Shown here piece by piece: positions 24,119 to 25,254 of a stretch of DNA of 64,000 nt. Under the pieces are notes generated by a model. It saw nothing but the letters and a program-made list of their open reading frames with translations. It searched no databases and had not been told where the DNA came from. The stretch lies in NCBI GenBank assembly GCA_963667175.2, contig CAXXXF010000012.1, forward strand, positions 32,001 to 96,000. The letters run 5' to 3'. Numbering within the stretch: position 1 is the stretch's first letter; each line of letters opens with the position of its first letter. The translations under genes and the position numbers were made by a program. The stretch comes from Candidatus Latescibacterota bacterium. GTDB lineage: Bacteria; Latescibacterota; UBA2968; GCA-2709665.

Positions 24119-24297
24119 AGGCTCACCCCATTCCGTGCTTTGCTTTCCGATTCGCGATCGATATGTTATCCGGGCGGGTGTCCGGTCTTATACGGGAGAC
24201 GGCGCGGTCCAGGGCGGAAGGATTCATCGACCTATTCCTGGAACGGAGCATCCCTTCTTCAAGATAGTTTTTATCCTGTCTATCCTGTCCATCCATG

Positions 24298-25059
24298 GTG
24301 CGCCGTGAAAGGCGCGGAACTCCAGTGGGTGAGAGTCCCACCCGACAAATGTTGCTACAGTCGGTAGCAACCGGAGCGGGGGTGAAGGTAACGACATCTC
24401 CGAAGCCTCCGGTGTAAAGGGTCGCAAGGCGACTCGGCGAGTATGCGGGCCGAAACGTGCAGTGAACGCTGAGCAGGCCTCGAAAAAGGTAATGCGGGAG
24501 CCGACCCGCCCATGGATCGGGGAAGGCCGCCGTCGTTGGAAAAAGAGAGCAACGCGTGCATCCAACGGTCCCGCCGGGGTAATGGCGAAGGCACGTATAC
24601 AAGGGGTTCCGACGCAACACGGGAAGCCCCAGCGGTGGTGAATAGACACCAACCGGACGCCCGTGAGGGACAGGCCGGGCCGTATGGGGTGGCGGACAGG
24701 CTCGTAGTACCCGTGAAGCCGGGTAACGCCGGTGGAGGGAAGGGGCCTGACTTCGGATGTGCTTGCGAAGGGGACAACTGTCGGGAGAGTGGCGCAAGCC
24801 TATTACCTCCTCTAAAAGTAGATGAGGCGACTCCGGAACAAGCTTGGGCTTCAGGTGAAGCTGTCCGGGCAGTGCGGGCAGCGTGTGCCTGAAGGCGACG
24901 TCCGTCGGAGAGCCGGATGCGGGAAACCCGCACGTCCGGTTCGACGAGCGGGATGTGGAAACGGAGCACGGAGCGGCTATTGAGGCACCGCCAGACGAAA
25001 GGGGCGGAAACAGATAAGAAGGGCCACTCCTAAACCACCGCGCCACATCCCGACTCTAC
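24298..25059 (+). ncRNA. ORF-less group II intron (~762 nt)
   Basis: 5' GTGCG; domain III GTAGTACCCGTGAAGCCGGGTAACGCCGGTGGAGGGAAGG; domain V GAGCCGGATGCGGGAAACCCGCACGTCCGGTTC (24910-24942); long domain VI ending CTCTAC; EBS1 CATGGAT (24511-24517) complementary to the exon end ATCCATG. Confidence 0.92.
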
Positions 25060-25254
25060 TAAGTTTGGGTCTTTGAATTATAGCTCGAATTATCCATGAA
25101 AACAGGTGGATTTGTTATATAACCGGTTGATTTTCAATAACATCAGCGGAAAATGTAACGAAATCCATTAAGAATCCGGAGTCGGGCTGGCCGGCAAACG
25201 CTGGGGTTTCGTGGTGGGCGGAGTGATGACCCACGTTCTATGGCGAATCGATTC

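Follow-up and report, generated by a model that had tools for sequence, protein, structure and literature searches.

A group II intron of 762 nt that carries no reverse transcriptase (RT) gene lies in the 64-kb stretch of Latescibacterota DNA analyzed here (the window), inserted into a copy of a short repeat that is dispersed through the genome. This is probably a non-autonomous intron of the IIB-like kind that enters the intergenic repeat by base pairing and is moved by the RT/maturase of sister introns; we infer its splicing and its mobilization in trans from sequence comparison. The combination of sequences that pairs with the exon-binding sites EBS1 and EBS2 of this intron is almost confined to this one dispersed intergenic repeat in the genome.

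Structure of the ORF-less intron

The GTGCG start and the CTCTAC end of the intron, the latter followed directly by the 3' exon sequence TAAGTTT, conform to the group II termini 5' GUGYG and 3' AY, and the same ends were found in 26 of 26 copies in this genome (Table 1). At Rfam gathering thresholds, RF02003 (group-II-D1D4-4) matches positions 24323–24460 with 102.3 bits (cut-off 49, E 1e-21) and RF00029 (Intron_gpII, domain V/VI) matches 24908–25059 with 45.4 bits (cut-off 40), while no other family matched at this threshold in the whole 64 kb. A consensus fold of 25 diverse relatives contains 124 pairs, 70 of which are marked by compensatory changes. The four longest ORFs that overlap the intron gave no Pfam family (E ≤ 0.01), and the domain IV ORF that encodes the RT/maturase of autonomous mobile group II introns is absent, with a remnant of 155 nt in its place. 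These results uphold the preliminary description of this DNA, which had recognized an intact ribozyme scaffold without an RT gene. That description had given the intron as 24268–25085, an interval that takes in about 30 nt of target repeat on either side.

The ribozyme in the window looks complete, and an old deletion appears to have taken the RT/maturase ORF out of domain IV. Full-length copies align with the window intron over intron positions 1–451 and 607–762 only, and the remnant between these segments is approximately 95% identical in subfamilies A and B and is shared across six genomes by their ORF-less copies. Eleven of these copies were compared, and in all of them the domain V stem is invariant and the intron ends are conserved. 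Two more copies at other loci of the same genome are 100% identical to the window intron. A25053, located 7 nt from the 3' end, is a candidate branch-point adenosine by virtue of its position. Attempts to derive the domain IV remnant from the 5' end of the ORF were abandoned: global alignment gave scattered blocks without meaning, and a local alignment reached a score of 22 (shuffles: mean 20, maximum 30). An ungapped comparison at offset −1 reached 0.47 identity over 80 nt (maximum of 1000 shuffles scored at offset 0: 0.4375), a weak signal that we do not rely on.

Table 1. Intron parts, target repeats and insertion points in the window (position 1 is the first letter of the 64-kb stretch)
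Feature	Position	Strand	Remarks
Empty A-type target	16550–16604	−	insertion point 16576/16575, between hsdR and hsdM
B-type repeat, ~150–165 nt, sharp ends	19160–19312	−	just upstream of hsdR
Empty subfamily-B target GCTGACA/ACTG	site 19213/19212	−	within the B-type repeat 19160–19312
Occupied A-type repeat, 5' half	24268–24297	+	IBS1 ATCCATG 24291–24297; likely IBS2 CCT 24284–24286
ORF-less group II intron, subfamily A	24298–25059	+	762 nt, GTGCG...CTCTAC; Rfam matches, no Pfam domain
EBS2 AGGT	24487–24490	+	last 4 nt of domain I internal loop
EBS1 CATGGAT	24511–24517	+	nt 3–9 of 9-nt hairpin loop closed by CCCG/CGGG
Domain IV remnant, ~155 nt	24749–24903	+	replaces ~1.37-kb RT ORF of sister copies
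Domain V, 33 nt	24910–24942	+	AGC triad 24911–24913; RF00029 alignment (GAGCCG... from 24910)
Domain VI with long internal extension, and 3' end	24949–25059	+	folds
Occupied A-type repeat, 3' half	25060–25085	+	begins TAAGTTTGGGTCTTTGAATTA
Start of composite repeat (repeat ~340 nt)	25090–25240	+	contains empty D-type target
Empty D-type target TTATCCA/TGAAAACAGGTGG	site 25096/25097	+	1 mismatch to subfamily-D EBS1
End of composite repeat: T-rich modules and empty A-type target	25240–25430	+	insertion point 25401/25402

Base pairing with dispersed repeats

The preliminary description had proposed that CATGGAT acts as EBS1 by pairing with ATCCATG at the end of the 5' exon. All seven of these pairs can form, and in the consensus fold of the 25 relatives CATGGAT falls inside the 9-nt terminal loop; a position outside the loop would have spoken against the assignment. 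Among 74 distinct intron/site combinations from many genomes, a count that omits 10 further sequences whose loop escaped the search pattern, this loop forms at least five of seven pairs with exon positions −1 to −7 in 71 cases, compared to an arithmetic chance expectation of about 7% of cases. Since the loop pairs with its exon so regularly, we assign it as EBS1. This assignment agrees with the three subfamilies that differ exactly in this loop, each loop matching its own 5' exon, so that loop and exon co-vary as proposed.

EBS2 lies in a loop that is unpaired in the consensus fold (columns 200–212). Among relatives this element co-varies, as judged by eye, with exon positions −11 to −14 (GGGC:GCCC, AGGC:GCCT, AGGT:ACCT, CGTT:AACG and CTGC:GCAG). 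In the window copy pairing is limited to AGG with CCT, the latter seven bases upstream of ATCCATG, and is shifted by 1 nt relative to the relatives. EBS2–IBS2 pairing is a feature of IIB-like introns; in subfamily A it is present and weak (3 bp). The heptamer ATCCATG occurs 699 times in the genome, and CCT-N4-ATCCATG 59 times. A24453 is a candidate EBS3, which pairs with the first base of the 3' exon in 11 of 14 distinct combinations from the genus and in 12 of 29 among distant relatives.

The genome, a draft in 18 contigs with an estimated contamination of 4.75%, contains 26 full intron copies, which fall into four subfamilies: A and B (eight copies each, 16 in all) lack the ORF, and C (four) and D (six), together 10 copies, encode an RT. 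According to rough calls by a crude codon-usage gene caller, 24 of the 26 are intergenic. The eight A copies comprise two distinct sequences with a mean pairwise identity of 0.989, and all of them form seven of seven EBS1 pairs if G–U is counted. Their flanks have an average identity of 0.54 (maximum 0.67). Copies 98–100% identical amid flanks about 54% identical indicate that the A insertions are recent and independent. Subfamily B is similarly homogeneous (99.8% among the seven of its eight copies that are of normal length).

The copies occupy a fixed position within their own repeat in 9 of 12 cases for the A and C subfamilies, which share EBS1 CATGGAT, in 8 of 8 for B and in 4 of 6 for D, with EBS1 complementary to the repeat. 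For the A and C copies this repeat is the A-type repeat of the window. The remaining three, all from subfamily A, lie at unrelated sites which nevertheless end in ATCCATG or GTCCATG. Copies at unrelated sites had been named beforehand as a finding that would count against repeat targeting; a minority of such copies exists, and these still match EBS1. Subfamilies B and D as well as relatives from sister species have different EBS1 sequences, matched to other dispersed repeats. In total, the genome offers about 54 A-type, 16 B-type and 10 D-type sites.

A repeat profile built with nhmmer matches 24265–24297 of the window (given as 56265–56297 of contig C12). The core motif ATCC-N-GT-NN-ATCCATG occurs 53 times in the genome, eight times occupied, with GTGCG as the next bases, and 45 times empty, and the reversed core pattern used as control occurs in none of the 31 genomes searched. 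Two empty targets had been noted in the window, and both were recovered at 25386–25408 (plus strand, no mismatch) and 16569–16591 (minus strand, one mismatch), while 0 of 100 shuffled sequences matched. The former has its insertion point 51 nt upstream of a gene for an MBL-fold protein (25452–26369). The further expectation that the repeat is multicopy genome-wide also held, both in this genome and across the genus: all 14 of the other genomes in the genus have the A-type core, with 10–93 copies apiece. Among them is G008 (one contig, 97% complete), in which neither intron DNA nor an intron-encoded protein was found. From this distribution we conclude that the repeat exists independently of the intron. 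In a related metagenome-assembled genome, five RT-bearing copies (loci L004–L008) reside at the same motif. Upstream of the orthologous MBL-fold gene, the repeat is present in only 2 of 10 genomes.

Compared with its shuffles, the A-type target has less structure on either strand (z +1.9 and +1.7). The B-type element, on the other hand, exceeds every one of its 200 shuffles in structure, again for both strands (z −3.3 and −2.9), and in the D-type region structure is confined to the plus strand (z −2.4). Permissive Rfam scans returned one chance-level match for 25060–25470 (snoR14, E 0.73) and none for 19120–19420. Scanning 24100–25500 for promoters and terminators yielded nothing usable: the minus strand has one promoter-like site (shuffle average 0.5) and, inside the intron, one terminator-like site (shuffle average 2.1). 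We also considered the A repeat as a minus-strand coding sequence (ATGGATGGACAGGAT...) and dropped this idea on inspection, because the numbers of modules vary and no fixed downstream frame follows; the minus-strand reading is free of stops since the stretch is purine-rich. In the openly accessible articles searched, we found no description of these repeats as group II intron targets.

Helper protein, mechanism and alternative explanations

A potential source of the missing protein is encoded in the same genome. All 10 RT-bearing copies contain an intact 456-codon ORF with the YADD motif, and the encoded protein matches RVT_1, GIIM and TIGR04416 (360 bits, cut-off 300). The preliminary description had suggested looking for an RT-encoding relative, and subfamily C provides one: its four copies combine the EBS1 of subfamily A with an intact 456-aa ORF. 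No RT-bearing copy in the genome has the EBS1 of subfamily B, which therefore, if mobile, would need a helper in trans.

Based on these observations we propose the following mechanism. The intron would be transcribed together with its surroundings, and its folding and splicing would be aided by the 456-aa RT/maturase of the sister introns, either from subfamily C with the same EBS1 or from subfamily D, which is also present. The resulting lariat–protein particle could find its target, DNA or RNA, chiefly through base pairing (EBS1 CATGGAT:ATCCATG and EBS2 AGG:CCT), reverse-splice into empty copies of the repeat and then be copied into DNA. Proteins of this kind without an endonuclease domain probably use replication intermediates as primers. 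Since the helper lacks such a domain, priming from replication intermediates is probable here too. The sister subfamilies may act alike with other EBS1 sequences and other repeats. Because the repeats are numerous, mostly intergenic and variable in presence between species, they could serve as renewable landing sites of low cost, and we infer that insertions into them are harmless.

Metagenome data were searched for a spliced junction or an empty allele, and in four runs (contigs only; best runs containing 0.13–0.24 of the sampled words) no contig joins 24297 to 25060. Contigs from RNA libraries cover the intron at depths similar to those of DNA from the same sample, and this coverage is not indicative of transcription. 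Pieces of the intron and of the repeats were present in sponge, coral and marine metagenome runs; these shares are small and involve repeats, so we draw no conclusion as to habitat.

The most serious alternative is that the intron inserts at many ATCCATG-like sites and is concentrated in the repeat mainly because selection removed it elsewhere, rather than through target recognition. Insertion outside the repeat does happen, since two of the three ectopic A copies interrupt long ORFs (1190 and 862 codons). Both are antisense and thus cannot be spliced from the mRNA of the gene, and the EBS2 pairing is weak (3 bp). However, the repeat accounts for only some 8% of the 699 ATCCATG sites but for 9 of the 12 copies, and adding the 3-nt IBS2 narrows the genome to a number of sites close to the size of the repeat family. 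We therefore judge it unlikely that selection is the main cause. Target recognition and selection can act together, and the enrichment in the repeat could in part reflect the loss of harmful insertions elsewhere.

Still less probable is the idea that the ORF-less copies are immobile relics, multiplied not by retrohoming but by recombination or by duplication or transposition of the repeat that carries them. The patchy occurrence of the repeat upstream of the MBL-fold gene suggests that the repeat itself may be mobile, and two genomes of the genus contain ORF-less copies with no RT found (see below). Against this idea, the flanks of the near-identical A introns diverge even within the repeat. 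Sites differ from one another in how many 9-mers they have and in their 3' halves, three copies lie outside any repeat at sites that match EBS1, and every one of the 26 copies has exact boundaries. Least credible of all is a role of the repeats as host regulatory cassettes (promoter or 5' leader) in which the intron was recruited to control the downstream gene by splicing: 36 of 53 repeats are co-oriented with the next called gene, often 25–100 nt before its start, as are 7 of 8 empty B-type repeats, but for the remaining 17 the next gene lies on the opposite strand, and the genes downstream of different copies, such as hsdM and the MBL-fold gene, are not related to one another. Scanning for promoters gave no sigma-70-like site within the repeats, the majority of copies carry no intron, and the orthologous MBL-fold gene is preceded by the repeat in 2 of 10 genomes only.

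An ORF-less lineage and its relation to known systems

Mobilization by sister introns, which we prefer, presupposes a helper, and this helper does not always reside in the same genome: G009 (one contig, 99% complete) contains ORF-less copies and no group II RT was found in it (best TIGR04416 match 72 bits against a cut-off of 300), and in G006, which also contains ORF-less copies, a search for a group II RT found nothing. We tentatively envisage, as a possibility rather than the expected case, one old ORF-less lineage comparable to a bacterial SINE. It would have originated from a single deletion, spread over six species and outlasted speciation, with near-identical copies at multiple sites even where no group II RT is detectable. 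This lineage might switch targets by swapping domain I (EBS) segments with autonomous relatives, and so follow four or more families of small intergenic repeats, whose own occurrence differs from species to species. Short non-coding derivatives that use the enzyme of an autonomous relative, and that can outnumber it, are well known from the pairs SINE/LINE and MITE/transposase. These pairs differ in mechanism from the present case, where a ribozyme would reverse-splice at a base-paired site.

The closest precedent is the intron family of the thermophilic cyanobacterium Thermosynechococcus elongatus, whose ORF-less members have diverged in their EBS sequences and enter mobile DNA that is itself repeated (Mohr et al. 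2010, PMC2882425), and the Latescibacterota introns are therefore best seen as a variant of a known lifestyle. As described for TeI3/TeI4, a single genome contains dozens of closely related copies (28 in T. elongatus, 26 here), more of them ORF-less than ORF-containing (17 versus 8 in T. elongatus, 16 versus 10 here), the families are split by EBS sequence, the ORF-less copies come from one ORF deletion, and many insertions are in repeated, non-essential DNA that supplies new empty sites (Mohr, Ghanem and Lambowitz 2010, PMC2882425). As in a T. elongatus-type system, this genome holds ten related RT-encoding introns, four with the same EBS1, and near-identical ORF-less copies that are well paired at different sites. 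The targets differ: those described for T. elongatus are other introns and an IS200-family element (PMC2882425), whereas the present genome has at least three kinds of short non-coding intergenic repeat in this role, and a fourth kind is used in sister species. Unlike the T. elongatus introns as portrayed in that study, the same ORF-less lineage recurs here in six species; and mobilization in trans was demonstrated by assay there (PMC2882425), whereas here it is proposed from sequence. The newer points are the mini-repeat targets, the old ORF-less lineage in six species, and the two genomes with ORF-less copies and no detectable intron RT.

An ORF-less lineage that outnumbers its autonomous relatives in one genome and recurs in at least six species with many target specificities would, if its mobility is confirmed, be the second natural system after T. 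elongatus for intron proliferation. Such a system would address how introns escape target saturation through EBS switching and the use of other repeats as safe landing sites, and its compact ribozymes (~760 nt) with a separable helper protein could be useful in gene targeting. Orphan copies in genomes without an RT also pose a question of persistence, namely for what time a non-autonomous intron lasts once its helper is gone.

Class IIC introns, of which the IIC-attC introns target attC sites, were considered as well. The solved RT structures closest in sequence to the 456-aa protein are of this class (GsI-IIC, 186 bits; 7uim, 175 bits). Class IIC introns are described as specialized for a multicopy intergenic motif, with an RT devoid of an endonuclease domain, as here, and as recognizing a DNA hairpin with a very short EBS1 and no EBS2 (PMC12584367). 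We rejected this assignment, given an EBS1 of 7 nt rather than 3–4 nt, a co-varying EBS2, an unstructured target and no terminator-like hairpin ahead of the site. As to the named bacterial classes (A–F, CL, ML), matches of the protein in PDB and on plasmids (tblastn) carry generic names, and the papers found link Rfam D1D4-4 with none of these classes.

Two further cases share single traits with this system. The ORF-less introns in dnaN of Trichodesmium are reported to be served by the maturase of a related intron (PMC12584367), and like those proposed here they depend on the protein of an ORF-carrying relative in the same genome. The Trichodesmium introns are described as splicing-dependent elements in an essential gene (PMC12584367), whereas those studied here are intergenic and apparently recently mobile. 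In Pseudomonas putida KT2440, two of nine group II intron copies are associated with REP elements (Tobes and Pareja 2006, PMC1525189), so that there, too, a group II intron of a bacterium occurs together with an extragenic repeat present in many places. The table row for that genome gives no EBS match to the repeat (PMC1525189), whereas here EBS1 is complementary to the repeat and the position of the intron within it is fixed.

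The intron and its copies in the genome

Between a GGACT-family gene and an MBL-fold gene, the window contains an ORF-less group II intron (see the table). By Rfam's own thresholds it is matched by the 5' model group-II-D1D4-4 at 102.3 bits (cut-off 49) and by the domain V/VI model Intron_gpII at 45.4 bits (cut-off 40). No other Rfam match occurs in the 64-kb window, and the four longest ORFs overlapping the intron contain no Pfam domain. The preliminary description of this intron proved exact at every base. Both the intron and the rules by which it recognizes its targets are well supported.

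Features of the intron family, its targets and their surroundings (window coordinates unless a contig, C, is named)
Feature	Position	Strand	Remarks
ORF-less group II intron	24298-25059	+	762 nt; 5' GTGCG, 3' CTCTAC
GGACT-family gene	23540-24118	-	flanks the intron; divergent from the MBL-fold gene
MBL-fold gene	25452-26369	+	other flank of the intron
hsdR / hsdM	16768-19158 / 14827-16473	-	type I restriction-modification pair; A-type repeat between, B-type just upstream of hsdR
Empty B-type element	19160-19312	-	within the window
Fourth repeat, TAACCTTGATTCG../TT.TTCGGGGACGTTAATTCGAAT.. (slash, insertion point)	12540-12575 and 2505-2540	-	about 11 more in the genome
Ectopic A copy	C18 38034-38795	+	antisense in a stop-free stretch of 1190 codons if the intron is removed
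Ectopic A copy	C10 42755-43512	-	antisense in a stop-free stretch of 862 codons if the intron is removed
Loop of A and C introns			CC-CATGGAT; insertion after ATCCATG
Loop of B introns			AT-TGTCAGC; insertion after GCTGACA
Loop of D introns			CC-TGAATTT; insertion after (A/T)TATTCA

Using this intron as a blastn query, we found 26 full copies in the source genome (G000; 18 contigs, 5.52 Mb), together with two 5' fragments. The full copies form four subfamilies, A to D. Subfamily A comprises eight ORF-less copies of 758-762 nt with only two distinct sequences, the window copy being one of three that are identical. Subfamily B also contains eight ORF-less copies, seven of them 761 nt long and 99.8% alike; one B copy (C13 174459-175517, minus strand) carries a 292-nt insertion in its remnant of domain IV. 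The four C copies (about 1979 nt) and six D copies (1976 nt) all encode an intact 456-codon ORF with YADD. This RT/maturase (IEP) matches RVT_1 and GIIM, scores 360 bits against TIGR04416 (cut-off 300) and lacks an endonuclease domain. Among solved structures, the GsI-IIC RT and a group IIC maturase come nearest to it.

Target recognition by EBS1 and EBS2

The four subfamilies differ most in a single 9-nt loop, and each version of this loop matches its own 5' exon. In a consensus fold from 25 diverse relatives (124 pairs, 70 with compensatory changes), the loop caps a hairpin whose closing pairs are CCCG/CGGG. Pairing was assessed in the G000 copies, in 12 loci of related MAGs, in about 50 distant relatives and in 19 ORF-less copies that come from sister species. 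Leaving aside 10 further sequences in which the loop was not found by pattern, loop positions 3-9 pair with exon positions -1 to -7 at five or more of seven positions in 71 of 74 distinct combinations. Therefore, these positions are EBS1. Read by eye, the final four bases of an internal loop (24487-24490) co-vary with exon positions -11 to -14 (GGGC with GCCC, AGGC with GCCT, CGTT with AACG, CTGC with GCAG), and we take this segment as EBS2. In A and C this second pairing is limited to AGG:CCT, with the register off by one base. A24453 is a candidate for EBS3, albeit not a convincing one. No terminator-like hairpin precedes the insertion site, and the target region of A introns is unusually unstructured. 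Given these features and the pairing of both EBS1 and EBS2, the window intron is IIB-like and not IIC.

Distant relatives from several phyla (61-69% IEP identity; for example L022, L024, L025, L029, L058 and L080) follow a similar motif, TA(A/G)CC(C/T)GG(A)nTATTCA, which may represent the ancestral target type. Allowing for a shift of one base, this motif is similar to the repeat CATCCTGTCC-ATCCATG.

Dispersed repeats as insertion sites

Nine of the 12 A and C copies reside in one dispersed intergenic repeat (A-type); the other three sit elsewhere, after ATCCATG or GTCCATG. The repeat core, ATCC-N-GT-NN-ATCCATG, occurs 53 times in G000, eight times occupied and 45 times empty; at the ninth occupied copy (C14 276525) the core is a variant one. 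With a profile derived from 14 long members, 120 matches are obtained at E<=1e-3. The repeat is modular: after T-rich units, the 9-mer ATCCTGT(C/T)C is repeated one to four times in tandem and leads into ATCCATG, followed by T(A/G/T)(A/T)GTT...TGAATTAATGGGG. Often it makes up the last part of a composite about 340 nt long, which starts with a subfamily D target. By our own rough gene calls, 49 of the 53 cores lie outside ORFs and 36 are oriented like the next gene. ATCCATG alone occurs 699 times in the genome, but only 59 times with CCT four bases upstream, so that EBS1 and the short EBS2 are almost enough to pick out the repeat.

The A introns share a mean identity of 0.989 (28 pairs), whereas their flanks (5' -50 to -17 plus 3' +1 to +45) average 0.54 and reach at most 0.67. 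This difference argues that the insertions are much younger than the repeat copies and did not spread by copying of an intron-bearing repeat. Judged from these identities, the A insertions appear recent and independent. Two ectopic A copies split long stop-free stretches in antisense orientation and are likely gene disruptions, so off-target insertion happens and can be costly.

Introns of B, D and the sister genomes act like those of A and C, but on other repeats. All eight B copies lie at the same place within an element about 165 nt long that has sharp boundaries; eight more such elements are empty with GCTGACA/ACTG intact, and several others have a degenerate site. Four of six D copies are inserted where the composite repeat begins, and about five empty or near-matching D sites exist, one of them at 25096/25097. 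Genome G002 contains eight near-identical ORF-less copies with EBS1 TTGCGAA; these reside in a fourth repeat, TAACCTTGATTCG.../TTCTTCGGGG...AAGTAGATAA, with TTCGCAA or TTCGCTA directly before the intron. Two ORF-less copies in G009 (EBS1 TGACGAT) occupy this same repeat after TTCGTCA; a third also follows TTCGTCA at a site with different flanks. By our own reading, G000 contains the fourth repeat as well (AACCTTGATTCG matches 16 times, about 13 with the 3' half of the repeat). These sites are unoccupied by the intron family because no G000 copy has a matching EBS1.

Each of the other 14 genomes in the genus contains the repeat core of A and C introns, with 10-93 matches. Outside the genus, the core is found in two of four genomes of the same family and in two of 12 from a second family (13 matches and one match); a reversed-pattern control gave zero matches in every genome searched. 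Of the 14 other genomes of the genus, 13 yielded intron DNA. The exception, G008, is a single contig (97% complete) with 30 cores, yet neither intron DNA nor IEP was found, and hence the repeat is independent of the intron. Since the repeat lies upstream of the orthologous MBL-fold gene in only two of 10 genomes, it is itself gained or lost over times comparable to those of speciation. Further short intergenic repeats, for example GGTTGCGGCTGAGCAAAGCGAAG.. and CCCACAAGGGACGCCCCTACA, recur upstream of orthologous MBL-fold genes (L106-L113), and both also adjoin A-type repeats in G000; the intergenic regions of the genus seem crowded with mini-repeats.

Origin and upkeep of the ORF-less lineage

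The closest IEP relatives (83-91% identity) come from MAGs titled Candidatus Latescibacterota, which makes this the probable phylum of the host. One of these MAGs carries five RT-bearing copies after ATCCTGTnnATCCATG (L004-L008). ORF-less copies from six genomes (G000, G002, G006, G007, G009, G011) share a domain-IV remnant of about 155 nt and can be aligned over their whole length, which points to one ORF deletion predating the split of these species. When a tree was built from domains I-III of 31 distinct sequences, ORF-less and RT-bearing copies came out intermixed: six label changes are needed, and well-supported branches force at least two. Within G000, the A ribozyme is nearer to C (0.935) than to B (0.899), and around EBS1 A matches C at 0.98-1.00 and B at 0.84-0.90, whereas the domain-IV remnants of A and B are about 95% identical. 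The simplest reading would be that ORF-less and autonomous copies have exchanged domain-I segments.

G009 (one contig, 99% complete) contains at least six ORF-less copies, three of which are 99.75-100% identical at three different sites. A search of this genome gave no IEP match at E<=1e-20, and the best TIGR04416 score was 72 bits (cut-off 300). Likewise, neither IEP nor TIGR04416 revealed a group II RT/maturase in G006, which also has ORF-less copies. Possibly the helper was recently lost or is encoded on an unassembled replicon, or the copies are inert but young.

According to one published account (PMC4424553), a genome with ORF-less introns nearly always contains related introns as well, and the proteins of these may act in trans. 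The closest known case is T. elongatus (PMC2882425): a single deletion gave rise to its ORF-less copies, their EBS diverged into six families, and insertion favors other introns and an IS element. The G000 family follows the same logic. Unlike in that account, the host is different, the targets are short non-coding repeats of several families, and the ORF-less lineage persists across species.

Some ORF-less copies of sister genomes (L084, L087, L088, L089, L103; alignment columns 65-94, 308-334 and 384-416) contain palindromic mini-insertions of 27-33 nt, GCCTGCCTG...CAGGCAGG. One such palindrome adjoins an occupied target in G000 (C2, about 290428-290460). These insertions resemble a further small repeat of the mobile or hairpin kind.
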